A DNA stretch of 64,000 nucleotides from Nitrospinaceae bacterium (GTDB lineage Bacteria > Nitrospinota > Nitrospinia > Nitrospinales > JACRGP01): contig JAJDBD010000088.1 of NCBI GenBank assembly GCA_029261575.1, forward strand, positions 13,524 through 77,523, written 5' to 3'. Positions within the stretch are counted from its first letter, which is position 1. Each line of letters starts with the position of its first letter. The notes under the pieces were generated by a model. The model was not told the DNA's origin, ran no database searches, and saw only the letters and a program-made list of their open reading frames with translations. The position numbers and the translations under genes were made by a program. This document shows, piece by piece, positions 18,025 to 57,535 of the stretch.

Positions 18025-18052
18025 TTAATTTAATAGAGAAGGTAATGATCCC

Positions 18053-25108: not shown

Positions 25109-25137
25109 CCAATTCCATTTCAATTTTTTCATGAGTC

Positions 25138-26052: not shown

Positions 26053-26320
26053 TTTCGAATCAATCAGACTTCCGCGACTGAATAACCGGCAATCCCTTCC
26101 AGCGTTTATTTTTTATCCCCATCTACTGAATACGGTTTTCCATTGGAAACAAGAACCGCCGCCGATCAACCTCAAGCGGAGGCTCGCAGAAGCCCTCTCT
26201 CCGCCGCCGTTATTTTGATTTTAAAAGAGCGCTTTTCTTGTTAAACTTGCGCCAACAAATACCTGTCGGCGCAAACAAAGCGGCTTGCGTCGACCATTCC
26301 CTAGATATTTTTCCGCGAAT

Positions 26321-28206: not shown

Positions 28207-28316
28207 TTACTATCCCAGCTGAGCTTAGTTTGGCATAAAGATTATTTTTCGTTCGGAAGTTATTTGAATCCCGATCTGGGACTTGAATCGCTAATTTTTT
28301 TATTTGGAAGAATCGC

Positions 28317-29222: not shown

Positions 29223-29256
29223 TAAGTAACCCTCGTAATATATTTCATTTATTTAT

Positions 29257-29994: not shown

Positions 29995-30035
29995 TTCAAG
30001 TCTTATAACCCCATTCCCTCTCAAGAGAAATTTCT

Positions 30036-33088: not shown

Positions 33089-33101
33089 AATCTCCTTAAC
33101 G

Positions 33102-34268
33102 ATGGCCGCCTTAAAAAAAAACGCGCTTTTGATTGCCGCCGGGTTAGCGCTCGCATTGGGCCTGTGCGAGGGCGGCCTGCGTCTGGCCCAGATTTCCTAT
33201 CCGTATTTTCACGAGCCGGACCCCCATCGCGGTTATAGTTTGTCGCCGGGGGTGGAGGGCTGGTACACGAATGAAAACCGCGCTTATATCCGCATCAACA
33301 GCCTGGGCATGCGCGACCGCGAGCATTCCGTCCCAAAGCCAGCGAAGACCTTTCGCGTGGCCGTGTTGGGCGATTCGTTCACGGAGGCTTTTCAGGTCGA
33401 CCGGGAAAAAACTTTCTGGAGCGTTCTGGAAAACGAACTGGCGGATTGCCCGACGTTCTCCGATAAAACTCCGGAGGTTCTCAATTTTGGCGTCGGCGGA
33501 TACGGTACCGGTCAAGAGCTTCTCACGCTGCGCCATCACGTTTGGCGGTTCGACCCCGATCTCGTTCTCCTCGCTTTCTTTTCCGGAAACGACGCCCGGA
33601 ACAATTCAAAAAAATTGCAAGGCGACGACCGTATTCCTTATTTTAATTTCAAGGACGGGAGGCTGACTCTCGACGCCGCCTTTCGCGACACGGCGTGGTA
33701 TCGGTCGCGAACGTCGTGGACGGGACGGACCGGCTATTGGATACTAAATTCATTCCGCACGGTTCAGATTTTGAAGCGCGCTTGGAATCTGGCGCAAAGC
33801 GCCGCCCCCGCCCAGGACGGGGTTCCCGACAACGTCAACACAATCGAAGCGGGACTGGACGATACGGTTTTCCGGGAACCCGCGAATCAGGATTGGCAAA
33901 ATGCCTGGAGAATCACGGAAGCTTTGATTGCCGAAATGAGTCGGGAGGTTAAGGAGAAGAACAAACGGTTTTTTATTTCGACGGTAACGTCTGGAATTCA
34001 GGTCCATCCCGACAAAAAAATTCGCGATGAATTTATGAAAAAAATGCGGGTTAAAAATCTTTTCTATCCCGAGACGCGGCTTCAAGCTATCGAGGAAGAA
34101 CACGGCATTCCGGTTTTGAGTCTCGCTCCGCTGTTCCAAGCCTACGCCGACCAGAAGCGGGTTTTCCTGCACGGGTTTGGGGCTCGTTTGGGCGTCGGCC
34201 ATTGGAACGAGGAGGGGCACAAGTTGGGTGGAAGATTGATGGCCAACTTTATTTGCGAGCGGCTTTAA
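33102..34268 (+). CDS. SGNH/GDSL-family hydrolase or acyltransferase with N-terminal membrane anchor
   Basis: Block I VAVLGDSFTE, block II GVGGYGTGQ, block III FFSGNDARNN. One N-terminal hydrophobic helix. Confidence 0.7.
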   Translation: MAALKKNALLIAAGLALALGLCEGGLRLAQISYPYFHEPDPHRGYSLSPGVEGWYTNENRAYIRINSLGMRDREHSVPKPAKTFRVAVLGDSFTEAFQVDREKTFWSVLENELADCPTFSDKTPEVLNFGVGGYGTGQELLTLRHHVWRFDPDLVLLAFFSGNDARNNSKKLQGDDRIPYFNFKDGRLTLDAAFRDTAWYRSRTSWTGRTGYWILNSFRTVQILKRAWNLAQSAAPAQDGVPDNVNTIEAGLDDTVFREPANQDWQNAWRITEALIAEMSREVKEKNKRFFISTVTSGIQVHPDKKIRDEFMKKMRVKNLFYPETRLQAIEEEHGIPVLSLAPLFQAYADQKRVFLHGFGARLGVGHWNEEGHKLGGRLMANFICERL

Positions 34269-34409
34269 CGATTTTTGAAAATTATCGACCTTGTTGACTT
34301 ATATTGAACGCGGCGGCAAGCATGTCGGCGGGGCCTTGCAAGCGCCAAAAATTAATCGCTCACCGTCCGCCTCAACGATTCGTTGATTCGTTGATTCGTT
34401 CATACGCCT

Positions 34410-36635
34410 ATGGTCCGGTTACCAGATCAAATAGGGTTTTGCCTGCTCCTGTTCTTAATCGTTTTCACGCCGCTGGCGTTTGGCTCCGTTCATACCTGGG
34501 CTTACACGTTGACCGAATGCGTCGCGCTGTTGATGATTTCCTGCCCGCTCCTGCAAGCCGCGATCAAAGGCGAATTCGTTTGGGTCAAGGCGCCGTTCAA
34601 CGCCTGCGTCCTCGTTTTGCTGGCCTACCTGTTTTTGCAAACGCTCCCCCTGCCCGCAAGCCTGATAGCAAACCTGTCTCCGGAAACTCTGGCGGACCAC
34701 GCGCGCCGGCTCGCGCCGGGCGAACCTCTTTCCTCTATGGGCAATATTTCCCTTTCCCTGAACCCGAGAAAAACCTGGGTGGATTGGTCGAAGATTGCGA
34801 CCTATTTTGCCGTCTTTTTTTACATCGTGAACCGGGTCCGGACCCGAAGGGAAATCAACCTGCTGATTGCTGCGATTTTATCGGTCGCCTGTTTCGAGGT
34901 GTTGTACGGTCTGTGGGGAAAGGTCGAGGGGACTTATACGATCTGGTGGTGGCAAAATAAATTTGGCGGTCCTCATATCAGCGGCACCTACATCAATTCG
35001 AATCATCTCGCAGGCTATCTGGAAATGGCGGCCCTGTTGGGCGTCGGATTTGTCTTCAGTTTTTTCAAACGATCGCGGTCTCGCAAACCTCTGGTAAAAA
35101 TCTCCTGGGGAATGCGGGCGCTGGAATTTTTTCAAAACCGCGGAAGTTCGTTCCAGCTATTTGCTTTTTATTCCACCCTCCTTATTTTATCCGGAGTCTT
35201 TTTGACCGCCTCACGCGGAGGCATGCTTGCTCTGTCGGGCGGCCTGATTTTTGCGGGGGCGGCGTCCTTCCGCCAATGGCGACCGTATTTAAAGCCGACG
35301 TATTTGGCGTTGATCCTCGTTGCCGCGCTGTCCGCCGCGTGGGTCCTGCAAGGGGAGGAAACCCTGTCGGTGTTTGATCGATATAAAACTCTTTTTTCCG
35401 TGGGCGATTTGCTTCGGGACGAACAAAAGGCATACTCCAACGAGTTTCCGCTGAGGTTGAGACTTTATCGCGACCTGATCGCGGCCAGCCGGGACTATCC
35501 TTTTTTTGGAATCGGATTGGGTTCTTTTTCCGAACTGTATCCCAAGTATTATCCTCCGAATATCGTGGGATCGTTTCAGTACGCGCATAACGACTGGTTG
35601 CAGTGGCTTTTGGAAACCGGATGGATCGGACTCGCCTTGCTGGCGGCGGCGATGATTTTCTTCGTCGCGTCCTGCGGTCGTCTGCTGAGAAAGCGCGACG
35701 ACCCTTATGCCGTGGGAATTGGCTGGGGCGCCCTCGGCGGCCTGACCGCCTTGTTCCTGCACAGTTTCGTGGATTTCAATCTGCACATCCCCGCCAACGC
35801 TCTTCTGTTCTTCGTCCTTGCGGGAATCGCTTATGTGACGATCCATAACCAGGTTCATCAGGGCCAGGAAACCAGCCTGCTTCCGACCCGGACCCTTCGG
35901 CCCGCGAAGCCGGTTCTTTGGGGCGCGGTTGCGGGAATGGTTTTAATTTTTGGGATGTTCGGAACCTGGAGTCTCAAGCATTTGCGAGCGGAAAATCTTT
36001 GCCCGACGGAAGTGAATTCCACGCTGACGCTGGAAAAAAATCCTCCTCTCGACGACATAAAAAAAGCTTTGATACTGGAGCCGAACAATGCGGAGTGTTG
36101 GGGCAAGCTGGCGTTGCAATTCGAAAAACTTAAAAGACTGGAACCGAAAAATTTCTTCCAGAAGTACTACACGGAAAAAAACGTTCAGGCCCTGACTGAG
36201 GCGTTGCGGCTCAATCCCATCCGTTCCTACCACCACGCTTTACTGGGCAGGGAATATTTTCATCTGAGCCTGTTAGAGCCTGAGAGTTCGCGGAAATGGT
36301 TGGACCGGTCCTACCGCTCCTATGAAAATGCCGTTTATTACGACCGAAGAAAGTCCGGAGCCATTCTGACCGCCGCCAACATCTGGCTGGACTACGCGAA
36401 GGGCGCGACCCGGCCCGACCATAAAGTCATGTTTTCGGAAAAGGCGTTCGCGTTGATGAAAGTGATTGTTCGGTTGCGGCCCTTTTTTTGGAAATACGCT
36501 CTGGACACGGCGTTTCCTTATTACTCCAAGCTCGATCTGGTTACAAAAGTGATTCCCGGTCCCGGCGAGTCGGACGAATTCAAAAAGCTGAATTTAAGGG
36601 CGCGGCAACGGGTATTAAAACGCCTGGGCCTCTGA
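34410..36635 (+). CDS. O-antigen ligase family (Wzy_C) membrane protein fused to a C-terminal TPR-like domain
   Basis: 741 aa. The N-terminal ~500 aa are polytopic with the signature YAHNDWLQWLLETGWIGL. The C-terminal ~230 aa are soluble, helical-repeat-like (ALILEPNNAECWGKLA..., ALRLNPIRSYHHALLGREY). Confidence 0.75.
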   Translation: MVRLPDQIGFCLLLFLIVFTPLAFGSVHTWAYTLTECVALLMISCPLLQAAIKGEFVWVKAPFNACVLVLLAYLFLQTLPLPASLIANLSPETLADHARRLAPGEPLSSMGNISLSLNPRKTWVDWSKIATYFAVFFYIVNRVRTRREINLLIAAILSVACFEVLYGLWGKVEGTYTIWWWQNKFGGPHISGTYINSNHLAGYLEMAALLGVGFVFSFFKRSRSRKPLVKISWGMRALEFFQNRGSSFQLFAFYSTLLILSGVFLTASRGGMLALSGGLIFAGAASFRQWRPYLKPTYLALILVAALSAAWVLQGEETLSVFDRYKTLFSVGDLLRDEQKAYSNEFPLRLRLYRDLIAASRDYPFFGIGLGSFSELYPKYYPPNIVGSFQYAHNDWLQWLLETGWIGLALLAAAMIFFVASCGRLLRKRDDPYAVGIGWGALGGLTALFLHSFVDFNLHIPANALLFFVLAGIAYVTIHNQVHQGQETSLLPTRTLRPAKPVLWGAVAGMVLIFGMFGTWSLKHLRAENLCPTEVNSTLTLEKNPPLDDIKKALILEPNNAECWGKLALQFEKLKRLEPKNFFQKYYTEKNVQALTEALRLNPIRSYHHALLGREYFHLSLLEPESSRKWLDRSYRSYENAVYYDRRKSGAILTAANIWLDYAKGATRPDHKVMFSEKAFALMKVIVRLRPFFWKYALDTAFPYYSKLDLVTKVIPGPGESDEFKKLNLRARQRVLKRLGL

Positions 36636-36755
36636 AACGGTTCGTGGGCTTTTAAATTACCCGCGGGTGCCGGTCGATTTTAAGGCGGGCGAATTTTTGC
36701 ATTAATCTCCCTCCGACTTTTTTTGCGATACTATAAAGGCAGGAGGAATTCCCCA

Positions 36756-37493
36756 ATGAACTGCAAATTTGCCAAACCGGGATTTCGATGGGGCCGCGCG
36801 CGGGCCTGGTGGGCTATCCTTTGTGTTGGGGCTCTTTCGGCGTGCGCCTCCGGAGCCGTTACCGGCAACCGCTACGTGGACGAGTCCAGAGGTTACCAGA
36901 CCTCCTGGTCGGCGTCGGATTGGGAGACGATCCCGGACGCCTGGTCCTACGATGATGATTTCGGAACGATCCTGACCCAGACGCCCGGAAAATTTCAGTA
37001 CTTCACGGAGAAAAGACACGACGGCAGGCCGCGCAACGAACTGGGCCGTTATTACGATCCTCCCAAGACGAAGGAAACTTCAATATTCGACGTCGGACTG
37101 GGATTGCGCCGGCAAGGCGCGGACCTGAAAATTCTAGCGGCCACCGCCACCGAGGGTCGTTTGTTCAAATTTGTACAGGCTCACAAGGACCGGCGGGATT
37201 ATGGCAAGCGGGGGGAGTTGATCCGGGATTACTTTGAAATCATCGGGGCGCCCTCTGGCGCCGCGAAGGGAGCGGGCGGCTCGTCCGGCGCGGATATTTT
37301 AACGACGCGGTGGAATTCGGAGCAAGGCGCGCGCGTACTCCATGGAAGGTTTGTGGGTGATTATGTATTGCTGGTTTTTCTGCAAGCCGGGAACTCGGTT
37401 TCCAACGATCTGTTGGACGAGGGAGTCGCCGTCGCTAAAAGTCTGATCGATGAAAATTTAACCCTTCTTTCCGAAACGTCCCATCGAAATTGA
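36756..37493 (+). CDS. Hypothetical lipoprotein
   Basis: The signal peptide ends in the lipobox-like LSAC. No recognisable domain. Start taken at MNCKF (36756). Confidence 0.5.
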   Translation: MNCKFAKPGFRWGRARAWWAILCVGALSACASGAVTGNRYVDESRGYQTSWSASDWETIPDAWSYDDDFGTILTQTPGKFQYFTEKRHDGRPRNELGRYYDPPKTKETSIFDVGLGLRRQGADLKILAATATEGRLFKFVQAHKDRRDYGKRGELIRDYFEIIGAPSGAAKGAGGSSGADILTTRWNSEQGARVLHGRFVGDYVLLVFLQAGNSVSNDLLDEGVAVAKSLIDENLTLLSETSHRN

Positions 37494-37517: not shown

Positions 37518-38417
37518 CTAAAAGAAACTGCGCGGGATGTGAATGATATCTCCCGGTTTCAGGCGGATATTCTTTGTCAAATCGCCCTCAAAAATGACCT
37601 GGTCCAGAGGCACGCTGATCCGTTTGATTTCTTTTACCCCGTTGGAATTCATGGTCTTTCTATACACCTTGGCGGCTTTCGGACGGGCGATTTCCGTCAG
37701 TCCCTCGGCCATTAAAATCGCGTCGAGAATAGTAATGCCCGCGCGAAAATCGACCACCTGCGGTTTTTTCACCTCGCCCATGACGTTGATCCGGCTGTCG
37801 AAATTGTCGTGGATCAAAACAAAGTCGTTGTCCTTGAGAATGACGTTTTGGGAAAATTCGTCCTCGCGAATCAGCGCGTGGAAATCGATGGGCATCTTCT
37901 TTCCATCCCGAAGCAAATAGGATTTTTTGAGATCGGCTTGTTCGGTGAAGCCCTCGGCCAGGGAAAAAAGATGCAAAAGGGAAATCGGCCGGTTCACTTT
38001 AAAAGTCCCCGCCTTGTTGACCTCGCCGGTGATGGAAATTTTGATGCTGTTGATCTCTTTGACGATGACGGTGACGCTGGCGTCGGTGATGAATTTCCTG
38101 AGGCGCGCAGTGATTTCTTTCCTCAATTCCGACGGAGTCCTGCCTTTGGCCTTGACGTCTCCGATCAGGGGAAAGGCGACCAGGCCGTCCGGGCGAACGG
38201 GCATTTTAGAGGTCATTTCCTTACTGCCCCACACCGAAATTTCGATGATATCCTCCGGACCCAGTCGAAACGCCTCCTCGTCGGCGGTTTGGGTCGAAAG
38301 GTTTGAAGATTTTTCCGCTGGAGACGCGAACCCCTGCGCTCCCGCTGGAGAGGAATAGAAGGAAAGATTCGTCGCCGCCAGGAACAACAATCCTACAACC
38401 GCCCAATTATATTTCAT
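37518..38417 (-). CDS. Polysaccharide export outer-membrane protein (Wza-like: Poly_export + SLBB)
   Basis: Signal peptide MKYNWAVVGLLFLAATNLSFYSSPAGAQG, then LGPEDIIEISVW...PVRPDGLVAFPLIGDVKAKGRTPSEL (Poly_export motif) and SLBB-like repeats. Alternative start at 38447. Confidence 0.8.
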   Translation of the reverse strand: MKYNWAVVGLLFLAATNLSFYSSPAGAQGFASPAEKSSNLSTQTADEEAFRLGPEDIIEISVWGSKEMTSKMPVRPDGLVAFPLIGDVKAKGRTPSELRKEITARLRKFITDASVTVIVKEINSIKISITGEVNKAGTFKVNRPISLLHLFSLAEGFTEQADLKKSYLLRDGKKMPIDFHALIREDEFSQNVILKDNDFVLIHDNFDSRINVMGEVKKPQVVDFRAGITILDAILMAEGLTEIARPKAAKVYRKTMNSNGVKEIKRISVPLDQVIFEGDLTKNIRLKPGDIIHIPRSFF

Positions 38418-38529
38418 GATTCCCCCAGAATTTTTAAACCCACGCAAAACCGAAAATCCGCCTCGTGTCTGAAAAGGTTCCTAAGCGTTAGTCAAGCGGG
38501 ATATTTAACAGCGATGGATTTTGAGCGTC

Positions 38530-38637: not shown

Positions 38638-39300
38638 TCAGGTAGCGGGAGTTCTTTTTATCAGGAGAATTTCGTGCATGTTCCAAAAATAAGTAATCGT
38701 CTTGTCGAGAGAAACATTCTTTTTCGATTCCAGATGCGCCAATACGGTGGCACGGGGTAAAGCCTTGCCGTTGTACCCAACCGCCAACACGCCGTCCGAG
38801 GCAAGGTAATCGGGCGCCTGGTCGAATAAAACGTCCAGAACTCCGGGATCTTCATAGTAGGACAAATTCCAGAAAATTATGTCGTAGGTTTTTTGGGGGA
38901 CGTTGGAAAATACGTTCGAGGTCAATGCGTTTACTTTATAAGAATTCGCCGAAATAAATTTTTTGGCGCACTCCACCCGTTCCTCGCGGTTGTCCACTCC
39001 GTCGATGGTCGTGGAAACCCGTTTGGAAAGACAGCCGCTCAGGATTGCAAAACTTCCCACGCCAATTTCCAGCATGCGGGGATTGTCCCATCGGCGTATG
39101 AGTTTCTTCAATTCGCGGCGCAGGAGGACCGTCGTCAGATCAAAGTAGCAACTGTCCCCCGTATCGACGGGAAAACGGCTCATCCCAAAAATCAACCGGG
39201 CAAGGAATCGGGATCGGAGACATGCGTGCCAAAAGGATCGAAACCGCGACGGAGCCGCGCCGGCGTAAATTTGATAAATTTTTTCGACTAGGACTCTCAT
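38638..39300 (-). CDS. Class I methyltransferase (HemK-like fold, degenerate NPPY)
   Basis: Motif I MLEIGVGSFAILSG. DIIFWNLSYY sits where N6/N5-MTases carry D-x4-NPPY. Last gene of the FkbH-ACP cassette. Confidence 0.6.
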   Translation of the reverse strand: MRVLVEKIYQIYAGAAPSRFRSFWHACLRSRFLARLIFGMSRFPVDTGDSCYFDLTTVLLRRELKKLIRRWDNPRMLEIGVGSFAILSGCLSKRVSTTIDGVDNREERVECAKKFISANSYKVNALTSNVFSNVPQKTYDIIFWNLSYYEDPGVLDVLFDQAPDYLASDGVLAVGYNGKALPRATVLAHLESKKNVSLDKTITYFWNMHEILLIKRTPAT

Positions 39301-39324
39301 AGAAAAAAAGGAGCGCTCCGCAGG

Positions 39325-39573
39325 CTAGCGGCTGTTGTTTAGACGTCGTTCGAGGACTTTGTAGACGTCCTTGAGTTGCTGTATTTCCAGTATCTCGCCG
39401 GTGGACAATTGAACTCCGAATTTGGATTCCAATCCCGAGATCAGGGACATATGGCCGATCGAATCCCATTCCGGAACCTGATCGGGGCTTAGGTTTTCGT
39501 TCAAATCTTCCGGTTCCAGGTCAAACAAGGAACAGAAAATCTCGTTTGCTTCTTCTTTCATGTTGGTATTCAT
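39325..39573 (-). CDS. Acyl carrier protein
   Basis: 82 aa, acidic, with the phosphopantetheine attachment motif WDSIGHMSLI (DSxxxxxL). Confidence 0.8.
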   Translation of the reverse strand: MNTNMKEEANEIFCSLFDLEPEDLNENLSPDQVPEWDSIGHMSLISGLESKFGVQLSTGEILEIQQLKDVYKVLERRLNNSR

Positions 39574-39588
39574 GCGGCTATGGGTGGG

Positions 39589-41424
39589 TCAATCCTGGAG
39601 GGGTTGAACATAGTCCGGCGGATCGGGAAACTTGCCGAGCGCATATTCCCAAATTTCTTCCTGGATATCTTCGCGGTTTTCAATATGTTTGAATCCCAGT
39701 TCCCGATACATGTTTTGACAGACGCCATTTTTGGGGCTGGGAATATAAACGCCCACCAGTTTTCGGGCCTGGCATCGATTGGCCTCGGCGGCCAATTTGG
39801 AAATAAATACCGTTTCCAAGGTAAGGCCGATCACCCGGCAACTCAACAGAAAGACGTCGATCCACCAGGCGCCGTTTTGAATATGGACAATCGCCGCGCC
39901 AATGAGGCCATTATCGCCGTACTTGTCGACCATTTTCAAGCTGTATATTTTATAATCCGGGCGGTCGACGAACCCGGCGATTTCATCCTCAGAATATCGG
40001 CGCGTGGTTAAATTATATTGATTGGTTTTTTTGACGAGTTGACATATCCGGTCGAAGGACGCCGGTTGAATTTCCTTGAAGGCGACTTTCATTTTAAGGT
40101 TTTTATAAAACCCCTCCAGGCTTCCGGCGCTTTCTTTTAAAGAATCGCGGCTTTTTTTCGCCTGATAATGGAGTTGGCGTTGGGCGTCCTCTTCGGTTTG
40201 GGTCAACGCGTCGAAATCATTTAACCCTTCGAGGGCGGCGCGGTACAAGGCGGGATCCTCCGGCAATTCCACCGTAAGAACTTCCGGCGCCATTTCCCTC
40301 ATCATTTCCCTTTCCCTGGGGTTGTCGTCGATGAAAACGATAGAGTCCAAACCTATTCCAATTTCTTTGCTGATTTCCCGAACGTTTTGCGGCTTATCCT
40401 GCCAATTGATTTTAGTCGCCGCGAAATCTTCCTTTTTCAAAAACATGAAAGGATGATTTTGAAAAACCCGGTCCACGTCGCTTTCGTTATTCTTACTGCA
40501 AATAGCCAGGATGATTCCTTTGTTCGCCAGTTCCTTGAGGTACTTTTGGAAATCCAGAAAAATATTTCCCGGCGATTGCGGCTCCAGTTGAATGCCGTCT
40601 ATCCCCGCCTCTCCCAATATCCCGCCCCAAAGAGTGTTGTCCAAATCCACCACCAGGCATTTTTTATTCTTCCCCTTAAGCGGTTTGATGAAGCGCATGT
40701 ATTCGTGGACCAGACTGGGAATGCGGTCGTTGTGAAACGGTTGTTTGAACAAATACCACTGCCTCTCATCCTTCCAGCGATCCCACCCCGCCTTGTTGAC
40801 CAGCTTGTTGTAGTCCAGACAATAAATTCCCTTTTTCCCGGAAATAATATTGGAATGGAAGCAGGCGTTCAAATACGCATGACTCTCAAAAACGCTATTG
40901 GCGCCGAAAGGATCGGACAAGCGGTCGAAGGGATAATGAAAATTATGAATCAGAAGAGGACACTTGAAGCGGTCTTTTAACATTCCCGCGAGGGCGGCAA
41001 CCTGCTCCAGTTCTTCGCGCGTTTTTTCTTCAAGGTCCGCGCCGTTGGCGTTTCCGGTATTCTGGTAAATGTGAGGAAAAATTTCTTCGCCCAACAATCC
41101 GAGGATGATCAGATCGGGTTGAAAACCGCCTTCCGAGCCTTCGCCCAACTTGGAGACGACGCCGAAATATTCATGGGAGACCATCTCGGGCGCCAAACCC
41201 AGCTTGAAACATTCGACCCGCAAGGCTTTTTTGACCATCTCCGCGGTGAAATTGGTAATGATCATGCACCGGAAAGTTTCTCTCCGAATAGGCTCTCCGG
41301 GAACCGGATCGAGGTTTTCGTTTTTCAATAACCGGTCGATTTTTTTTTCGAGCAAAACGTAATCGTGGAAACAGAGCTTCCCTTTTTTCTTTGCCTCGTA
41401 ATCAAGGATCAATTCTCGAATCAT
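39589..41424 (-). CDS. FkbH-like protein (HAD-IIIC phosphatase domain plus C-terminal GNAT-like domain)
   Basis: 611 aa. HAD motif I VVDLDNTLWGG, later SKNN and FIDDNP. The C-terminal ~150 aa are acyltransferase-like. This is the FkbH/OzmB-type architecture. Confidence 0.8.
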   Translation of the reverse strand: MIRELILDYEAKKKGKLCFHDYVLLEKKIDRLLKNENLDPVPGEPIRRETFRCMIITNFTAEMVKKALRVECFKLGLAPEMVSHEYFGVVSKLGEGSEGGFQPDLIILGLLGEEIFPHIYQNTGNANGADLEEKTREELEQVAALAGMLKDRFKCPLLIHNFHYPFDRLSDPFGANSVFESHAYLNACFHSNIISGKKGIYCLDYNKLVNKAGWDRWKDERQWYLFKQPFHNDRIPSLVHEYMRFIKPLKGKNKKCLVVDLDNTLWGGILGEAGIDGIQLEPQSPGNIFLDFQKYLKELANKGIILAICSKNNESDVDRVFQNHPFMFLKKEDFAATKINWQDKPQNVREISKEIGIGLDSIVFIDDNPREREMMREMAPEVLTVELPEDPALYRAALEGLNDFDALTQTEEDAQRQLHYQAKKSRDSLKESAGSLEGFYKNLKMKVAFKEIQPASFDRICQLVKKTNQYNLTTRRYSEDEIAGFVDRPDYKIYSLKMVDKYGDNGLIGAAIVHIQNGAWWIDVFLLSCRVIGLTLETVFISKLAAEANRCQARKLVGVYIPSPKNGVCQNMYRELGFKHIENREDIQEEIWEYALGKFPDPPDYVQPLQD

Positions 41425-41427
41425 AAA

Positions 41428-42186
41428 TCAGAGGGGCATTTTTTCTCCGCCGCAAACGGGGAGGTTGATTCCTGTGAGATATTTGGCGTAGGGGCTTGCA
41501 AGGAAAAGGGCGGCGACGGCGATATCGTCCAACTCCGTGAGTTTGCGCATGGGCGTGTTGGAAACGATTTCCTGAAAAAAACGATCCGGCAGATTTTTAT
41601 TCAAATCCGTTTTGGTGGGACCCGGCGAGATCATATTTACGTTGACGTTGTGCGGTCCCAACTCCACCGCAAGGCTTTTGGAAAAACCTTCCAACGCGGA
41701 TTTGATCGTCACGTAGGGAGCTTGCTGTCCGGGCGGAGTTCCCAATATCCAGGCGGAAAGAACGTTAATGATACTGCCCTGCTCTCGCTCCTTCATTTGT
41801 TTTCCAAACACAAAGCAACAATTGAAAGTTCCTTTTAAAGAGACGTCCACATGGCGCTGGAAATCCTGCCATTCCAAATTGAAAAAACCCTTTTGCTGAA
41901 CCGACGGCCCGGCGTTATTGACCAGGACGTCCACCGGTCCAAAATGTTTTTCAACTTCTTCGGCCATCTTTTCCACCGCGTCCCGGTCCGCAACGTCCGC
42001 CTGAATGGAAATCGCCTCGCCGCCGTTTTTGATAATTTCTTCTTCGATGGACTTCGCCGCTTTGGAATTGGACTTGAAATTCAAAACTACCTTGGCCTTA
42101 TGGGCGGCGAAATACCTGGCCATGGCGGACCCTATGCCCCGGCTGGCGCCGGTGACGACCACCACTTTGCTTTCTAAGTCGAGCAT
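41428..42186 (-). CDS. SDR-family oxidoreductase, 3-oxoacyl-ACP reductase (FabG)-like
   Basis: 252 aa with TGASRGIGSA (TGxxxGxG), NNAG, and S...YxxxK (YVTIK). Confidence 0.85.
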   Translation of the reverse strand: MLDLESKVVVVTGASRGIGSAMARYFAAHKAKVVLNFKSNSKAAKSIEEEIIKNGGEAISIQADVADRDAVEKMAEEVEKHFGPVDVLVNNAGPSVQQKGFFNLEWQDFQRHVDVSLKGTFNCCFVFGKQMKEREQGSIINVLSAWILGTPPGQQAPYVTIKSALEGFSKSLAVELGPHNVNVNMISPGPTKTDLNKNLPDRFFQEIVSNTPMRKLTELDDIAVAALFLASPYAKYLTGINLPVCGGEKMPL

Positions 42187-42635
42187 TCTACCGGCCTCGC
42201 CCAGCCATTTGAGTTTTTTTTTTGCGGGGGATTAAAAATCACTTCGGCAGTCCCGGAAATCACTTTTTTATCGTCCTGGTTGACGATCTCCGTGTGGATT
42301 TTTAGGATTTTTGTTGCGGAGTCAATTCCGGTAATTTTACCGCTAATGGTTAGGGTATCGCCTACAAAAACCGGACTCAGAAACGAAAGCTTTTGCGAAC
42401 GATACAACGCGCCCGCTCCCGGAAGCATGACGCCCACGAGGGTGGAGATAAACGAAGAGGCCAGCATGCCATGGCAAATACTGCCCGTCGAGAGAATCTC
42501 CTGGGCGAAATCGTCGTCGAGGTGAATCGGGTTGTCGTCGCCGGTAAGCTCGACAAAGGCCCGAAGGTCTTTGTCCTCGATTTTCTTTTGAAAGCTGGCT
42601 TCCTGGCCTACTTGGAAATCTTCCCAGGTTTTCAT
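42174..42635 (-). CDS. MaoC-like (R)-specific hydratase/dehydratase (hot-dog fold)
   Basis: 153 aa with LTGDDNPIHLD and ICHGML motifs. 13-nt overlap with the fabG-like start. Confidence 0.8.
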   Translation of the reverse strand: MKTWEDFQVGQEASFQKKIEDKDLRAFVELTGDDNPIHLDDDFAQEILSTGSICHGMLASSFISTLVGVMLPGAGALYRSQKLSFLSPVFVGDTLTISGKITGIDSATKILKIHTEIVNQDDKKVISGTAEVIFNPPQKKNSNGWARPVECST

Positions 42636-42800
42636 GGATTGGATAATTGGATAAAAAGAGAGGATCGCTTAATATTTTTTACCGTCGGATGCAGATAAGG
42701 CAATGAAACCCGCCGCCTGCTTTTCATATATTAACACAAAGCCGACAAAACCTTTTGAATGAATCAAACCTCGGTCCGGAATGCGAAATACCGCGCCATT

Positions 42801-43382
42801 CTAGTCTGAGTAAACCGTTTTGATGATGGTTGCGGATTTGCGTATCCCCTGACACAAGGCTTGGACCGATGCGCTGGATCCTGCGGAGGACGCCACCGAC
42901 AAGAAATCCGACTCCGCATTTTTTCCTATGAATTGACCGAGAAAAGCTTCCGATACCAACTCGTCTCTTTGCAAACCTTTGAACTCCAAAATCTCTACCC
43001 TTTTAATCCTCCCGTCGGGGCCGCAAACAACCATGTAATGAATATCCAACGGATGGTGGGCGAGGTTGACGACCCTGTCAAAATGGGCGAGACCGATTTT
43101 TTTTCCATCTTTAATTCCCACATGCAACTTGACCCTTTTCTGATTGAACGGTTGACCGGTCAAATCCTGGATCGATTTTTTCTGGGTCTTATCCAACCAT
43201 TTTTTTTCAATCGTTACTTGGTCCGCATCCGAAAAGGCTTTGTCCAAGGCTTGCTTCTTTGTCAGATAGGTCTTGGATCGAACCTCCTCCTCTTTCAGGA
43301 TATGCCCCTGGGCAGGCATATGTTCAAAAACAAAAATCCCAACCAAGCAAAGCCAAAGCGCATTCCTTAATCTCATTTTCAT
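42801..43382 (-). CDS. Secreted protein with FMN_bind-like domain
   Basis: N-terminal signal/anchor. The C-terminal part, IKRVEILEFKG...FLGQFIGKN...SSAGSSASVQAL, resembles the FMN-binding domains of NosR/RnfG/NqrC, but the flavinylation motif (SGAT) is not canonical. Confidence 0.4.
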   Translation of the reverse strand: MKMRLRNALWLCLVGIFVFEHMPAQGHILKEEEVRSKTYLTKKQALDKAFSDADQVTIEKKWLDKTQKKSIQDLTGQPFNQKRVKLHVGIKDGKKIGLAHFDRVVNLAHHPLDIHYMVVCGPDGRIKRVEILEFKGLQRDELVSEAFLGQFIGKNAESDFLSVASSAGSSASVQALCQGIRKSATIIKTVYSD

Positions 43383-43472: not shown

Positions 43473-46400
43473 TCATGCTCTTTTTCTCCATCTGAACTCC
43501 AAAACCATAGAATAAATTGCTGGGAGCACAATCAAAGTCAGCAAAGTCGCCGAAACCATGCCGCCCACCATGGGCGCGGCGATTCGCTTCATCACCTCGG
43601 AGCCGGTTCCGTGTCCCCACATGATCGGCAACAAGCCGCCTATCACCGCCGCCACCGTCATCATGATGGGCCGCACTCTTTCCGTCACGCCCTCCATCAC
43701 CACGTCGCGGATTTCCTTTTTGCTCGCAAAGCCGCCAGAGTTCAATTTTCTCTGATAGGCGTGGTCGATGTACACCAACACCAGCACGCCGATTTCCGAC
43801 GCCACTCCCGCCAACGCGATGAATCCGACCCCGACGGCGACGCTCAGTTCGTATTGCAAATAATAAAGGTACCAGACGCCGCCCACCAGGGCGAACGGCA
43901 GGGACAACATGACGATCAGGCTCTCGGTCAGATTGTTAAAATTTAAATACAATAATAAAAAAATAAGAACCAGCGTCAGGGGAACCACAAGTTTCAATCT
44001 TTCCTTGGCGCGTTCCATGTATTCGTACTGGCCGCTCCATTGCAAGGAATAACCGGAGGGGAGCTGAAAGTTTTCGGCCAATATTTTTTTGGCGTTGGCG
44101 ACATAGGTTCCCACGTCGATATCTTTAATGTCGATATAGATCCAGGCGTTGAGGCGGGCATTTTCGCTTTTAACGACCGGCGGTCCTTTCTTGATGGAAA
44201 TATCCGCCACCTGCGCCATGGGCACATGCTCGCCGCGCGGCGTGGGGATCAATACGCGTTTCAGTTTATTGATATCGTCGCGCAAATCCCGGCTGTAACG
44301 CAGGTTCACCGGATAGCGCTCCCGACCTTCCACGGTGGTGGTGATGTTCATCCCGCCGATCGCGGTCTGGATGACGTCCTGCACGTCGCCGGTGGTCAAG
44401 CCGTAGCGCGCCGCTTGCTCGCGCTTGATTTCAAAGTCGAAATAATTTCCGCCCACAACCCGCTCGGCGAAAACGCTCAGGGTTCCCGGTACGGTTTTAA
44501 TGACCGATTCCACCTTCGCCCCCAATTCCTGGAGAACGTTTAAGTCGTCGCCGGCGATCTTGATCCCAACGGGCGTTTTTATTCCCGTGGACAGCATATC
44601 GATGCGCGTCTTGATGGGCATGGTCCAGGCGTTGGTGACGCCTGGAATTTTTATGGCGGCGTCCATTTCCGCGATCAATTTTTTTGTCGTCATCCCCTCG
44701 CGCCATTCGCTCTCCGGTTTCAGCATGACGGTCGTTTCCATCATGCTAAGCGGCGCGGGATCGGTGGCGGTTTCGGCGCGGCCGATCTTTCCAAAAACCC
44801 GGCGGACTTCCGGGAATTGTTTAATCATTTTGTCTGTCTGCTGAACCAGTTCCCTGGCTTTGGTGATGGAAATTCCCGGCAGAGTGGTGGGCATGTACAA
44901 AATGTCGCCTTCGTTGAGCGGCGGCATGAACTCGGAACCGAGCTGTTTCAGCGGAATCAGCGTGATCGCCAGAATCAGCAAGCCGCCGAGGAGGGTTAAA
45001 AATTTCATCCTGAGCGCGAGCCAGATCACGGGTCGGAACAAAATATTCAATATCCAGTTGACGGGGTTTTTCCGCTCCGGAAGAATTTTTCCGCGAATTA
45101 AATATCCCATCAAAACCGGAACCAGCGTCACCGAAAGAATCGCGGCGGCGGCCATGGAGTAGGTTTTGGTGAAAGCGAGCGGGGCGAACAATCGGCCCTC
45201 CTGCGCTTGCAGGCTGAAAACGGGTAAAAACGAAACCGTGATGATGAGCAAACTGAAAAACAGCGCCGGTCCCACTTCGCTGGAGGCTTCGTAAATTATT
45301 TGCCAATGATTTTTCTTGCGGTCCCGGTCGCGCTCCAGATGTTTGTGGACGTTTTCCACCATCACGATGGCGCCGTCTATCATGGCGCCGATGGCGATGG
45401 CGATTCCCCCCAGCGACATGATGTTGGCGTTCAACCCCTGTAAATTCATGACGATCAGAGCCATCAAAATTCCCAAAGGAATCGTCAGGATAGCCACCAG
45501 GGCGGATCGCATATGCAATAGAAACACCAGGCAAACCAGCGATACCACCAGAAACTCTTCCTCCAGTTTCTCTTTCAGGTTGTCCACCGCGCGCAAGATC
45601 AACCCGGACCGGTCGTAGACGGTAACAATTTCCACTCCCTCGGGCAGGCCGCTCTTTAATTCCTCGAGTTTTGCCTTAACCCGGTTGATAACCTCCAATG
45701 TGTTTTCGCCGAATCGCTGGATCACGACGCCGCCGACGACTTCGCCCTCGCCGTCAAGCTCCGCCAGTCCCCGACGCATTTCCGGTCCCAGGTGAACGTT
45801 TGCCACGTCGCGAATTAAAATCGGGGCGCCATGGGCGTCCACGCCCAAAGGAATACTCTTGATATCGTCGACGCCTTTGATGTAACCCAGCCCCCGGACC
45901 ATGAACTCGGTTTCGGACATCTCCAGCGCCCTTCCCCCGACGTCGTTGTTGCTTCTTTTGATGGCGCTGGAAATTTTGTGCAGAGGAATATTGTAGGCGA
46001 TGAGTTTGTTGGGGTCGATCTCCACTTGATATTGCTTGACGTATCCGCCGACGCCGGCGACCTCGGAAACGCCGGGCACGGTTTGCAGTTCATAACGCAA
46101 ATACCAGTCCTGGATAGACCGCAAATCCGAGAGATCGTTCTTGCCGGTTTTATCGACCAGGGCGTATTCGTAGACCCAGCCCACCCCCGTGGCGTCCGGG
46201 CCCAGGGTGGGGTTGACGCCTTCCGGCAACCTGCCGCCGACAAAATTGAGTTGCTCCAGAACGCGGCTTCGCGCCCAATACATATCCGTCCCGTCTTCGA
46301 AAATAATATAAACAAATGAAAACCCAAAAAACGAATAGCCGCGCACGATTTGGGCGAAAGGAACCGAAAGCATGGCCGTGGTCAAAGGATAGGTGATCTG

Positions 46401-46589
46401 GTCCTCGACGATTTGCGGGGCCTGGCCGGGAAACTTTGTGAATATGATCACCTGCACGTCGCTGAGGTCGGGAATGGCGTCGAGCGGCGTCCTTAACATG
46501 GAATAGATCCCGAACGCGATCAGAAACCCGGTTCCCAGGAGAACCAGAAATCTGTTTTTCAGAGAAAGCGCGATTACTTTTTTTAGCAT
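43473..46589 (-). CDS. cusA: Heavy-metal efflux RND pump, CusA-type (Cu/Ag)
   Basis: 1038 aa, 12-TM RND layout. The TM4 signature SLGGIAIAIGAMIDGAIVMVEN matches the monovalent-cation (CusA) type rather than the Czc DFG-DGA-VEN type. Confidence 0.88.
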   Translation of the reverse strand: MLKKVIALSLKNRFLVLLGTGFLIAFGIYSMLRTPLDAIPDLSDVQVIIFTKFPGQAPQIVEDQITYPLTTAMLSVPFAQIVRGYSFFGFSFVYIIFEDGTDMYWARSRVLEQLNFVGGRLPEGVNPTLGPDATGVGWVYEYALVDKTGKNDLSDLRSIQDWYLRYELQTVPGVSEVAGVGGYVKQYQVEIDPNKLIAYNIPLHKISSAIKRSNNDVGGRALEMSETEFMVRGLGYIKGVDDIKSIPLGVDAHGAPILIRDVANVHLGPEMRRGLAELDGEGEVVGGVVIQRFGENTLEVINRVKAKLEELKSGLPEGVEIVTVYDRSGLILRAVDNLKEKLEEEFLVVSLVCLVFLLHMRSALVAILTIPLGILMALIVMNLQGLNANIMSLGGIAIAIGAMIDGAIVMVENVHKHLERDRDRKKNHWQIIYEASSEVGPALFFSLLIITVSFLPVFSLQAQEGRLFAPLAFTKTYSMAAAAILSVTLVPVLMGYLIRGKILPERKNPVNWILNILFRPVIWLALRMKFLTLLGGLLILAITLIPLKQLGSEFMPPLNEGDILYMPTTLPGISITKARELVQQTDKMIKQFPEVRRVFGKIGRAETATDPAPLSMMETTVMLKPESEWREGMTTKKLIAEMDAAIKIPGVTNAWTMPIKTRIDMLSTGIKTPVGIKIAGDDLNVLQELGAKVESVIKTVPGTLSVFAERVVGGNYFDFEIKREQAARYGLTTGDVQDVIQTAIGGMNITTTVEGRERYPVNLRYSRDLRDDINKLKRVLIPTPRGEHVPMAQVADISIKKGPPVVKSENARLNAWIYIDIKDIDVGTYVANAKKILAENFQLPSGYSLQWSGQYEYMERAKERLKLVVPLTLVLIFLLLYLNFNNLTESLIVMLSLPFALVGGVWYLYYLQYELSVAVGVGFIALAGVASEIGVLVLVYIDHAYQRKLNSGGFASKKEIRDVVMEGVTERVRPIMMTVAAVIGGLLPIMWGHGTGSEVMKRIAAPMVGGMVSATLLTLIVLPAIYSMVLEFRWRKRA

Positions 46590-46601
46590 TATTTTGCCTC
46601 T

Positions 46602-47549
46602 TTAAATGCGGTCTTTCGCGCGGGTTTCAATATATTTTTTGGGAAATTGTTGGAATTCGTTTCGGCATACTTCAGAACAAAACCAATATTTTTGCTCCTG
46701 ATAAATATGTAGTATAGGAAGATTTCTTTCTTTAAAAGACATTCCACAAACCAGGTCGTAATCCAGATTCCCTGTACGAGTTCTTAAAAATTTTAAAAAT
46801 GAATCGACCAGACCAGGGTCAAAATGACTGCCTTTTTCGCTTTCAATAATCCTCAGGGTTTCATTTTCACTCAATGCCTTCCGGTAGGCTCTGCCATGGA
46901 TCATTCCGTCGTAAGCGTCGACGATGCTGATTATTTTTGAACCCAAAGGAATTTCCGGCCCATGAAGTCCGTCCGGATAGCCAGTACCGTCGATTCTTTC
47001 GTGATGATGCCGAATTGTTTTTTGAATTTTTTCAAAACCCTTTAGTTTTTTAATGGATTCCGATCCTAAAATTGGATGTTTTTTTATTGTCTGAAATTCT
47101 TCGACATTCAATTTCCCTGGTTTTTTCAAAATATGGTCGGGAATGCCAATTTTCCCGACGTCGTGCAACTCTGCGGCCTGAGCAATCTCTTCGATCTCCT
47201 TGGAAGGCAATTCAAGAAATTCGGCAAAATTCCGGCTTAAATTCCGAACGTTTATGGAATGGCCCTCCGTATAGGGGTCTTTCAAATCAATCATTGAAAT
47301 CAAGGCCAGTTGAATGCTCATGTATTCTTCAAATTTTTCATTTTGAAGCTGTAAAAACTTTGCAGCATAAATCAACGTCGCCAAGGACAAAATAAACAAC
47401 CAAACTCCCGCTCCCAACATAAACGCATAATGACGGTTGCCCAACAACCCCGCCCAAATGATAGAACCAACTGCAATCACTAAAGTTAAGACAACAAGAA
47501 TGGAAATTACCCAAATGATTCTTCGGTTTTTTTTATGAAACGAACTCAT
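46602..47549 (-). CDS. Membrane-anchored HD-GYP phosphodiesterase fused to a C-terminal YHS/TRASH metal-binding domain
   Basis: Two N-terminal TM helices. HD-GYP motifs HDVGK and HHERIDGTGYPDGL. C-terminal DLVCGMSF...YWFCSEVCRNEFQQFPKKY matches the YHS pattern (CGM...FCS..C). 12-nt gaps to cusB and cusA. Confidence 0.85.
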   Translation of the reverse strand: MSSFHKKNRRIIWVISILVVLTLVIAVGSIIWAGLLGNRHYAFMLGAGVWLFILSLATLIYAAKFLQLQNEKFEEYMSIQLALISMIDLKDPYTEGHSINVRNLSRNFAEFLELPSKEIEEIAQAAELHDVGKIGIPDHILKKPGKLNVEEFQTIKKHPILGSESIKKLKGFEKIQKTIRHHHERIDGTGYPDGLHGPEIPLGSKIISIVDAYDGMIHGRAYRKALSENETLRIIESEKGSHFDPGLVDSFLKFLRTRTGNLDYDLVCGMSFKERNLPILHIYQEQKYWFCSEVCRNEFQQFPKKYIETRAKDRI

Positions 47550-47561
47550 TTGCTTAAGCTC

Positions 47562-49244: not shown

Positions 49245-49297
49245 AACGTTTCCCGTTTGATACTTACGATTTTTTTACAGGTTCCCGACGGTTCGCC

Positions 49298-52547: not shown

Positions 52548-52681
52548 GTCTTCCAAAAACGGTTTTGGTTTGCCGGAAAGGATCGGGTTTGCGACGAACC
52601 GGAATCCTCCGGCCCGAGTTATTGACCCGCCCGCGCGCCCGTTCCCTCCTCGATTTGCGCGCGCCGCACGACCCTGAAACG

Positions 52682-53458: not shown

Positions 53459-53459
53459 G

Positions 53460-56077: not shown

Positions 56078-56173
56078 TTTCAACCCTATTAATTAAGAAT
56101 ACGTTTGAGAAAATACCGGTCCATTTGAGATTTCATTCTGCGATGAATTTTCCTTCCTTTTAAAACCCCGGAA

Positions 56174-57469: not shown

Positions 57470-57475
57470 GAGTCC

Positions 57476-57501: not shown

Positions 57502-57535
57502 ACCAGATCAAACAAAGGGGAAATGGGAAGTTTGT

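Follow-up and report, generated by a model that had tools for sequence, protein, structure and literature searches.

A candidate carrier-protein cassette for acyl decoration of an exopolysaccharide in a Nitrospinaceae bacterium

The use of a glycolytic C3 unit by enzymes of the FkbH type has been described for OzmB, where a phosphoglyceryl-S-enzyme becomes a glyceryl-S-enzyme and the glyceryl group is then transferred to an acyl carrier protein, or ACP (PMC9057759). Here we compare the described pathways of this kind with a cassette of five genes in a stretch of 64,000 nucleotides from a Nitrospinaceae bacterium (assembly GCA_029261575.1, contig JAJDBD010000088.1, positions 13,524 to 77,523), which we call the window and whose own coordinates are used throughout. 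The genes encode a MaoC-type dehydratase, a short-chain dehydrogenase/reductase (SDR), an FkbH-like enzyme, an ACP and a methyltransferase, and they lie next to an exopolysaccharide (EPS) locus. In our preferred reading, to which we give a probability of about 0.55, the cassette is a free-standing carrier-protein pathway that would turn a glycolytic C3 unit into a lactyl-type acyl donor, with which the exopolysaccharide of the neighbouring Wzx/Wzy/Wza locus is decorated. The broader part of this reading, an ACP-bound C3 acyl donor made for a glycan by an FkbH-type enzyme, is clearly the likelier one; that the bound unit is lactyl is tentative, somewhat short of an even bet, and argued by analogy.

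The analogy comes from the lactyl-S-ACP starter units of FR901464 (Fr9) and lankacidin (Lkc), for which proteins combining a dehydratase (DH) and a ketoreductase (KR) have been reported to turn glyceryl-S-ACP into lactyl-S-ACP (He et al. 2014, as cited in PMC4765723). In the same account, these starters and the proposed loading module of bryostatin (BryA) bring together the four activities found in the window, in the same logic. However, the DH and KR of Fr9 and Lkc form one bifunctional protein of the polyketide synthase (PKS) type that supplies a chain starter, whereas the window encodes discrete enzymes (even though seven relatives fuse them) of the MaoC/PhaJ and classical SDR types, set apart from the former by family, with glycan genes instead of a PKS as neighbours and with acyl decoration as the proposed outcome.

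A second group of pathways leads to methoxymalonyl- or hydroxymalonyl-ACP (FkbGHIJK, OzmBDEFG, ZmaN/D/E/G). It shares with the window an FkbH-type enzyme, whose motifs align with those of ZmaN, and a dedicated ACP, and it includes an O-methyltransferase acting on the ACP-bound hydroxyl, where the window has a methyltransferase resembling MTS/HemK proteins. Unlike the FkbH enzymes of these pathways, the window protein is a long form of about 610 residues with an extra N-terminal domain, and a dehydratase and an SDR take the place of the dehydrogenases that oxidise C3. Queries with ZmaG, ZmaE and ZmaI (phmmer) matched nothing in the window. The operons for glycerate utilisation in tetronate and butenolide biosynthesis share with the window a long-form FkbH directly followed by a small ACP, to which a phosphopantetheinyl transferase (PPTase) is sometimes added (PMC7489565). 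In those operons, however, the glyceryl unit is condensed with a polyketide through a FabH-like enzyme, while the window would tailor it with a dehydratase and a reductase; two FabH-like queries and one ketosynthase (KS) query found no match there. The methoxymalonyl, hydroxymalonyl and tetronate routes were thus rejected because the dehydrogenases and the FabH-like enzyme that they require are absent from the window. The cassette is best read as resembling, by functional analogy, a lactyl-ACP starter pathway without its PKS, and as fitting neither of the other two schemes.

A third comparison concerns the delivery of acyl groups to glycans. In D-alanylation by the Dlt system, a small dedicated carrier (DltC) and the MBOAT protein DltB deliver an acyl group to an envelope glycopolymer, as we propose here for a different group. 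Loading in Dlt is by an adenylating ligase, the group is D-alanyl and the transferase an MBOAT, whereas the window would rely on FkbH-type loading of a C3 hydroxy-acyl unit; the cassette is not Dlt-like, as the window holds no MBOAT gene.

Small acyl groups of the relevant kind do exist on bacterial sugars: some O-antigens of Vibrio cholerae contain N-lactoyl (2-hydroxypropanoyl) perosamine, and the flagellin of Campylobacter jejuni 11168 carries a di-O-methylglyceroyl derivative of pseudaminic acid (Pse). In C. jejuni, acpP and methyltransferase genes are neighbours of cj1302. This last gene, which contains an fkbH domain, has been noted in the flagellar glycosylation locus with no functional work on it (PMC7099621). 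N-glyceroyl pseudaminic acid is documented in Tannerella forsythia, where the genetic origin of the acyl group is reported as not known and the explanation of its transfer “remains a major challenge” (PMC5378307). Both cases involve nonulosonic acids on glycoproteins, in contrast to the window, where the glycan is a Wzx/Wzy/Wza exopolysaccharide and where MaoC and SDR point to lactyl rather than glyceroyl. In open-access text, the passing mention of cj1302 was the only trace of a glycan-associated FkbH; subscription-only work was not covered, and prior work there is possible. All other open-access papers that mention FkbH deal with polyketide or peptide natural products, which bears out an earlier reading of this DNA, made from the letters alone (the sequence-only reading), in its view that such a use of FkbH is poorly characterised.

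The five genes and their predicted chemistry

The cassette occupies positions 38638-42635 of the minus strand, and its five intact open reading frames (ORFs) were confirmed at the coordinates and with the tight spacing that the sequence-only reading had reported. The MaoC and SDR genes overlap by 13 nucleotides, and 3, 15 and 24 nucleotides separate the SDR from the FkbH-like gene, the latter from the ACP gene, and the ACP from the methyltransferase gene. The motifs picked out in that reading are also there: DLDNTLWGG in the FkbH-like protein (D260/D262), DSI in the ACP (Ser38) and NLSY in the methyltransferase (145-148). A promoter and terminator scan was uninformative, giving 10 terminator-like sites against 10.8 expected and none between minus-strand genes. 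For comparison with relatives, a scan of GTDB species-representative genomes gave at least 597 loci, of which the best-scoring 80 (L012-L091) were analysed with flanks of up to 10 kb; gene families were detected with the window proteins and with profiles built from clusters of neighbouring proteins.

The long-form FkbH-like enzyme (39589-41424, minus strand) scores 297.7 bits with the FkbH model TIGR01686 (curated cut-off 146.65) and 71.8 bits with the HAD-IIIC model TIGR01681 (cut-off 35.75), the two models that had been suggested as a check of its domains. Pfam alone gave weak HAD matches and neither FkbH nor FkbH_N, and NCBIfam and a structure model were needed. As references we took ZmaN, from the zwittermicin cluster identified by its annotated zmaJ, and a Streptomyces FkbH encoded beside an ACP and an acyl-CoA dehydrogenase. 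In alignments with both of them and with 25 long-form homologues, HAD motifs I-IV (D260xD262xT264, S310, K344 and D366D367) are invariant. The only cysteine invariant between the window protein, ZmaN and the Streptomyces FkbH is C529, in S528-C529-R530-V531, and this invariance suggests it as the catalytic thioester cysteine; the sequence-only reading had asked whether that residue aligns, and it does. An AlphaFold model (pLDDT 85.6) comprises an N-terminal domain like that of BF1531, a HAD-IIIC phosphatase domain and, in keeping with the GNAT-like part noticed earlier, a C-terminal GNAT-fold domain that carries C529. Residues ~1-410 of the model superpose on BF1531 (3slr) with a TM score of 0.84 on the target, and the C-terminus matches GNAT acetyltransferases, a fold that is a scaffold for pantetheine binding and is suited to acyl transfer to an ACP. 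A sequence search of the PDB returned a single match, the uncharacterised BF1531 fragment. The idea that the N-terminal domain might be an SGNH-type transferase was tried and discarded: the conserved positions of the 26-sequence alignment include no histidine, and no Ser/His pair is evident. A homologue search gave more than 3,900 matches, of which the best distinct one shares only 41% identity, and a metagenome contig scan found no close relatives. By its score, HAD motifs, invariant cysteine and adjoining ACP, it belongs with the FkbH family, and a role as glyceryl-S-ACP synthase is predicted from these features.

The ACP gene (39325-39573, minus strand) encodes 82 residues that match the PP-binding model (22.7 bits, cut-off 20.8) with Ser38 as the phosphopantetheine site. 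Its score of 78.4 bits with a profile built from FkbH-adjacent ACPs, together with the recurrence of an ACP homologue in 72-74 of the 80 loci, mostly with its start no more than a few bases from the FkbH stop, upholds its description as a dedicated carrier. These data also bear on the suggestion that the FkbH-like protein is a mere HAD sugar-phosphate phosphatase, with ACP, MaoC and SDR forming an unrelated 3-hydroxyacyl, fatty-acid-like side pathway. The family is indeed named “HAD-IIIC family phosphatase” at NCBI, and 3slr, the one relative with a solved structure, goes under the description of a phosphatase domain. However, the protein shares with true FkbH enzymes a conserved GNAT-fold domain and its invariant SCRV cysteine, the gene next to it nearly always encodes an ACP, a PPTase is often adjacent, and the window has neither a KS nor an acyl-ACP synthetase to load a fatty acyl chain, all of which makes this suggestion barely credible.

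Upstream in the cassette lies the gene for a single hot-dog (R)-specific dehydratase/hydratase of the MaoC type (42174-42635, minus strand; PF01575 MaoC_dehydratas, 1.3e-18). It carries a complete hydratase-2 motif, FVELTGDDNPIHLDDDFA, with D33 and H38, and the pattern [YF]-x(1,2)-[LVIG]-[STGC]-G-D-x-N-P-[LIV]-H-x5-[AS] matches from residue 27. Among solved structures it comes closest to two (R)-enoyl-CoA hydratases of the PhaJ type, 5cpg and 1iq6, and to 3ir3, a human 3-hydroxyacyl-thioester dehydratase. The next gene (41428-42186, minus strand) encodes a classical SDR (adh_short_C2, 1.2e-57) with TGASRGIG at 12-19, NNAG at 90-93, S144 and Y158xxxK162. Of the earlier label “SDR/FabG-like reductase”, the family and the likeness to FabG hold; FabG proper does not, since the best FabG models give about 200 bits and the protein falls below every NCBIfam equivalog cut-off (296-333). 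With a profile of MaoC and SDR proteins from FkbH neighbourhoods, the two products score 157 and 294 bits, respectively.

The surveyed loci tie the two enzymes to FkbH and to each other. A MaoC gene is found in 24 of the 80 loci and an SDR gene in 17-18, and the order MaoC-SDR-FkbH-ACP recurs in a Nitrospinota metagenome-assembled genome (MAG; L032) and in a Papillibacter MAG (L082). Two further Nitrospinota loci (L048 and L083) have MaoC-SDR-FkbH with the ACP upstream, and a Methanosarcinales locus reads PPTase-FkbH-ACP-MaoC-SDR-Antibiotic_NAT. In seven loci (L017, L040, L049, L069, L076, L079 and L085), a single protein of 392-423 residues beside FkbH fuses an N-terminal MaoC to a C-terminal SDR, and such Rosetta-stone fusions point to consecutive steps for the two activities. 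The MaoC-SDR pair is thus part of the FkbH-ACP module. The order of the domains in the fusions mirrors that of the genes in the window.

With these parts, the following pathway can be proposed. Cys529 of the FkbH-like enzyme would capture 1,3-bisphosphoglycerate in thioester form, the 3-phosphate would be cleaved off by the HAD domain of the enzyme (D260/D262), and its GNAT-fold domain would pass the glyceryl group to the phosphopantetheine on Ser38 of the ACP, as homology predicts. By analogy with Fr9 and Lkc, MaoC (D33/H38) would eliminate the 3-hydroxyl of glyceryl-S-ACP to give 2-hydroxyacryloyl-S-ACP and its tautomer pyruvoyl-S-ACP, whose 2-keto group the SDR (S144/Y158/K162) would reduce with NAD(P)H to lactyl (2-hydroxypropanoyl)-S-ACP. 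More speculatively, the methyltransferase might O-methylate the 2-hydroxyl, as FkbG and OzmF do on hydroxymalonyl-ACP, or else a sugar. Judging from relatives, the acyl group would finally be moved onto an amino sugar freed of its N-acetyl group, through a GNAT transferase and a CE4 deacetylase in the syntenic relative treated below, and through Hexapep and PIG-L proteins in other Nitrospinota. The intact dehydratase and SDR, the MaoC-SDR fusions and the FR901464/lankacidin precedent all lead us to read the cassette of the window as a discrete, non-PKS analogue of those starter pathways. Out of the range of ACP-tethered hydroxy, enoyl or methoxy units that the sequence-only reading had considered for a glycan or a lipid anchor, a hydroxy-acyl unit for the glycan is the best supported and is now narrowed to the lactyl type, the methyl part is weak, and the lipid anchor found no support.

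The same genes could instead yield another ACP-bound C3 or C4 unit, with MaoC and SDR working in a different order or on a different substrate: plain or O-methylated glyceroyl, pyruvoyl, or 2-methoxyacryloyl and 2-methoxypropanoyl. The SDR may, for instance, oxidise the 3-hydroxyl, which is the reaction of FkbK in the hydroxymalonyl route. Such a product would be in keeping with the many loci that have MaoC without SDR, with N-glyceroyl (PMC5378307) and di-O-methylglyceroyl as documented glycan substituents and with the methyltransferase genes, from three different families, that directly follow the ACP in the window and in loci L005 and L010. However, the seven fusions bind MaoC and SDR into a consecutive pair of steps, and from a 2,3-dihydroxyacyl thioester a 3-hydroxyacyl dehydratase can only form a 2-keto product, which an SDR can reduce; moreover, phmmer found in the window neither a 3-hydroxyacyl-CoA dehydrogenase of the FkbK type nor an acyl-CoA dehydrogenase of the FkbI type. 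We therefore regard a different unit as rather improbable, and continue with the lactyl-type donor.

A VOC protein of the Glyoxalase_4 type, found in 17 of the 56 loci without MaoC and in none of the 24 with it, appears to exclude MaoC beside FkbH, which suggests at least two alternative tailoring branches. Sulfotransferases accompany only FkbH-ACP loci that lack MaoC.

The last gene of the cassette (38638-39300, minus strand) encodes a divergent class I methyltransferase of the MTS/HemK-like type (PF05175 MTS, 34.8 bits, cut-off 23), with GVG at 80 and, at 145, NLSY in the place of NPPY; its matches to HemK families lie below threshold, and the earlier description of a HemK-like protein with a degenerate NPPY stands. 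The family is tiny, with 4 homologues among 5.8 billion proteins. The gene call of the source starts at M40 and gives 181 residues, whereas we favour a 220-residue form: the orthologue in the syntenic relative aligns from residue 1, and the N-terminal extension shows coding-like substitutions. The window protein ends 8 codons before this orthologue, which has 228 residues, is 84-86% identical and keeps the same position relative to Wza and the cassette. With L005 and L010, where methyltransferases also follow FkbH-ACP directly, three different methyltransferase families occur in this position. The role of the enzyme, which may O-methylate the acyl unit or else act on a sugar, is uncertain, and it is best treated as an associated part weakly linked to the pathway.

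Related loci in bacteria and archaea

The 80 loci come from Acidobacteriota, Nitrospinota, Planctomycetota, Verrucomicrobiota, Myxococcota, Firmicutes, the Candidate Phyla Radiation (CPR), Asgard archaea, Thaumarchaeota and others. In 10-12 of them a PPTase of the ACPS type adjoins the FkbH-ACP pair, directly upstream. A candidate acyltransferase lies within 6 kb in 58 loci, and it may be a hexapeptide (LbH) protein, a member of a family of about 378 residues encoded right after the ACP, an MBOAT, an Antibiotic_NAT or a GNAT protein; a de-N-acetylase (CE4 or PIG-L) occurs in 21. Deacetylase and acyltransferase come in non-orthologous pairs, PIG-L with Hexapep in Nitrospinota L032, L048 and L083 and CE4 with GNAT in the syntenic relative, and in an archaeal locus (L023) an Antibiotic_NAT protein stands in the acyltransferase role. 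Such convergent pairs support a model where an N-acetyl sugar is first deacetylated and then re-acylated from the ACP. Radical SAM/SPASM genes also lie beside the FkbH cassettes of the three Nitrospinota loci.

MBOAT genes occur in 6 of the 80 loci and in a pSymB-type replicon of Sinorhizobium meliloti (L008, 815-5849), and in L008 as well as in L071, L078, L067 and L062 they directly adjoin the ACP and FkbH-like genes. This Dlt-like arrangement suggests, by analogy, extracytoplasmic O-acylation from a carrier protein. In the S. meliloti locus, a 409-residue gene lying between them is annotated as “TonB-dependent receptor” and looks misannotated.

The sequence-only reading had proposed to look for the cassette beside glycan genes in other genomes, and had regarded PKS or non-ribosomal peptide synthetase (NRPS) partners of the homologues as the outcome that would speak against it. 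All seven homologue contexts with precomputed Pfam annotation turned out to be glycan loci, in which a small ACP gene comes after FkbH and the genes around the pair encode glycosyltransferases (GTs), Wzy, Wzx, methyltransferases, an exosortase and transferases of the hexapeptide or GNAT-like kinds. Queries with ZmaA, ZmaB, ZmaK and a Streptomyces KS found no KS, acyltransferase (AT) or condensation (C) domain in the 80 loci, 3 of which have FabH-like genes and 3-4 a stand-alone adenylating enzyme. In the window, too, the reported absence of KS, AT and any NRPS/PKS module held, and neither a FabH-like nor an acyl-CoA dehydrogenase gene was found.

These results weigh on the possibility that the cassette feeds a polyketide, tetronate, non-ribosomal peptide or lipid pathway encoded elsewhere and lies next to the exporter by coincidence. 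All biochemically studied FkbH enzymes do serve a PKS or NRPS, and the combination of a long-form FkbH with an ACP is found in natural-product clusters as well, as in a Streptomyces plasmid (L094) where a KS, a FabH-like protein, a 645-residue FkbH, an ACP, a PPTase and an AfsA-like protein are encoded together. Nevertheless, the window has no KS, AT, C domain or FabH-like protein, and the few FabH-like and adenylating enzymes of the surveyed loci stand against conserved neighbourhoods of GTs, de-N-acetylases, N-acyltransferases, MBOATs and sugar-nucleotide enzymes; moreover, the synteny with wza, wzy and the SGNH gene is kept in the syntenic relative. A remote PKS or NRPS partner is therefore highly improbable, and a non-polyketide use of FkbH chemistry, as first proposed from the letters, is supported by the glycan neighbours.

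The cassette is thus part of a widespread and conserved module of bacteria and archaea, which the sequence-only reading had missed. That FkbH-ACP cassettes in general, including those of Asgard archaea, Thaumarchaeota and CPR, form an unrecognised carrier-protein system that puts C3 acyl groups on surface glycans is a wider proposal, a little less than evenly balanced.

A syntenic relative and the transferase gene

A search with the methyltransferase led to the only close relative found, the contig JAJDBB010000101.1 (GCA_029261555.1; L093 hereafter), whose synteny with the window extends from CusB to a GT4 gene. Its order is CusA, u191, GNAT (222 residues), MaoC, SDR, FkbH, ACP, CE4 deacetylase (248 residues), methyltransferase and Wza, and the proteins of the cassette, the exporter and the flanks share 76-96% identity with their window counterparts (MaoC 93%). 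The GNAT gene (L093:5014-5682; PF00583, 26.1 bits, cut-off 20.7) overlaps MaoC by 4 nucleotides. Between the two contigs, the five cassette genes show dN/dS values of 0.03-0.10 (MaoC 0.10, SDR 0.06, FkbH 0.09, methyltransferase 0.10), as low as those of CusA and Wza. All five are under purifying selection, a value averaged over the whole divergence that cannot date the loss of the GNAT gene.

Two genes of L093 are missing from the window. Upstream of MaoC there is a spacer of 165 nucleotides, in which a tblastn match at 42681-42773 covers 31 residues with 68% identity to residues 47-77 of the L093 GNAT protein, and a DNA alignment extends this remnant to an internal fragment of about 110 nucleotides (42681-42790, minus strand) flanked by deletions. 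The GNAT gene was therefore lost in the lineage of the window. The CE4 deacetylase gene, by contrast, differs by a clean indel of about 985 nucleotides (L093:8993-10000 vs 24 nucleotides at 39301-39324 in the window), with no remnant. The module of the window is incomplete, and either the transfer falls to another enzyme or the cassette has recently been orphaned; in this genome the GNAT gene having been deleted and no deacetylase being present, the last step would depend on such an enzyme or would be broken. The candidates for the transfer are the conserved SGNH protein of the EPS locus, the GNAT-fold domain of the FkbH-like enzyme, or a gene outside the window.

The first of these candidates is a membrane-anchored SGNH/GDSL protein (33102-34268, plus strand; Lipase_GDSL_2, 5.6e-12) that is kept in L093 with 83% identity, has homologues in only 2 of the 80 loci and shows no direct link to the cassette. 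It is the only candidate left in the window for an acyl-transfer or esterase step, and a weak one.

An orphaned cassette is the most serious alternative, which we nonetheless consider unlikely, at perhaps half the weight of the preferred reading. It supposes the same pathway, but stranded in this genome after the loss of GNAT, so that lactyl-ACP has no dedicated outlet or the genes are decaying. The GNAT remnant and the indel by which the deacetylase is missing relative to L093 are what it would predict, and the lack of a transferase candidate in the window agrees with it. Against decay, none of the five ORFs is broken, the junctions between them are tight or overlap, and their dN/dS is as low as that of CusA and Wza, again a value that cannot date the loss; the transferase, moreover, could be any of the three candidates named above.

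Several observations weigh against a functional lactyl-type pathway in this genome, and they are best considered together. With the GNAT gene reduced to a remnant and no recognisable transferase in its place, the function of the cassette here is uncertain: profiles from related loci found no hexapeptide, ~378-residue family, MBOAT, GNAT or PPTase gene in the 64 kb of the window. The substrate 1,3-bisphosphoglycerate and the identity of the catalytic cysteine are predicted from conservation, the glycan-associated role of FkbH is a proposed one, and the lactyl outcome is a matter of analogy rather than homology, as the DH/KR of FR901464 is of the PKS type and the window has a MaoC and a classical SDR. 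Near 11 of the 24 MaoC-containing loci there is no SDR, where the product may stop at pyruvoyl or vary from locus to locus. The two other contexts of methyltransferase homologues, on contigs of about 2 kb, show no ACP, and in one of them a homologue with 48% identity follows a WecB-like gene, which speaks for a family not consistently linked to ACPs. Finally, the 80 loci are the top-scoring subset, mostly from MAGs, with mechanically called ORFs and families detected by ad hoc profiles, and home-made GT2/GT4 profiles detected glycosyltransferase genes in only 44 of them.

Genes around the cassette and the meaning of the module

The gene that follows the cassette, 190 nucleotides downstream of the methyltransferase and in the same direction, encodes a Wza-like outer-membrane polysaccharide exporter of the XrtA/PEP-CTERM type (37518-38447, minus strand), with Poly_export and SLBB domains. 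Its identification in the sequence-only reading holds, with 193.7 bits for TIGR03027 (cut-off 180), and the ATG at 38417, from which the L093 orthologue aligns, is probably where the gene really starts.

The EPS locus (19238-37493, by Pfam and NCBIfam scans) lies mostly on the plus strand and so converges on the cassette, one methyltransferase gene being on the minus strand. It encodes a Wzx-like flippase, a radical SAM/SPASM protein, several S-adenosylmethionine (SAM) methyltransferases, GT4 and GT2 glycosyltransferases, an AsnB-type amidotransferase, another GT4, the SGNH protein, a Wzy_C-TPR protein and a 256-residue protein; the Wzy, SGNH and 256-residue genes are syntenic in L093. The locus likely supplies the target glycan. 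The amidotransferase resembles TIGR03108 (519.8 bits vs a cut-off of 816.9), the exporter passes the cut-off of its own model, and no exosortase was found among the window ORFs scanned. The part between 20000 and 30000 has a low GC content (0.40-0.50 vs about 0.53 elsewhere) and holds several SAM methyltransferases, the radical SAM/SPASM gene and genes for proteins of 445 and 304 residues, which suggests a heavily methylated glycan and a possible horizontal origin.

On the other side, upstream of the cassette and on the same strand, a gene for a secreted protein of 193 residues (42801-43382) is followed by a CusCBA-like heavy-metal RND efflux operon (43473-50572), with an AcrB-family pump, a CusB-like adaptor with an HMBD domain and an outer-membrane factor. 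Pump and adaptor are separated by the gene (46602-47549) of a protein with HD_5 and YHS domains. This operon is unrelated to the cassette. Further along, the plus strand from 52565 to 63265 carries a second glycan system with a Wzm/Wzt ABC transporter (its Wzt with a Wzt_C domain), glycosyltransferases and more methyltransferases, together with a B12-binding radical SAM enzyme (58901-60280) and a radical SAM/SPASM enzyme (61069-61995); a PilZ-domain protein is encoded at 63423-63950 on the minus strand. At the opposite end of the window, a conserved translation and transcription block (177-18598, plus strand), with EF-G first, RpoA and L17 last and ORFs of ribosomal-protein size between them, runs directly into the EPS locus. 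Its RpoA, with 80% identity to that of a “Nitrospinae bacterium” and 75% to that of Nitrospina gracilis, agrees with an origin in the Nitrospinota.

What is new here, in its best reading, is the redeployment of known FkbH, dehydratase and reductase chemistry as a stand-alone module for glycan acylation. The small N- and O-acyl groups that surface sugars carry affect antigenicity, the recognition by phages and lectins and the physics of the polymers, and for the unusual ones among them (glyceroyl, lactoyl and their methyl ethers) few of the responsible enzymes are known. If the model is right, the capture of 1,3-bisphosphoglycerate by FkbH, known almost only from polyketide and non-ribosomal products, would be widely used to tailor glycans, and the genes described here would offer genome markers to predict such decorations as well as new parts for glyco-engineering. 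The pair of Nitrospinota genomes that differ in their transferase and deacetylase genes represents a natural experiment on the gain and loss of glycan decorations. Were the wider proposal true, the system would install glyceroyl, pyruvoyl and lactoyl groups, as such or O-methylated, made by interchangeable tailoring steps (MaoC with or without SDR, or enzymes of the VOC/glyoxalase type) and delivered by interchangeable transferases (LbH, GNAT, Antibiotic_NAT or MBOAT), often after de-N-acetylation. Such a system would then provide the missing genetic basis for sugars with N-glyceroyl and N-lactoyl groups, such as Tannerella has in Pse5Am7Gra and Campylobacter in its di-O-methylglyceroyl-Pse.

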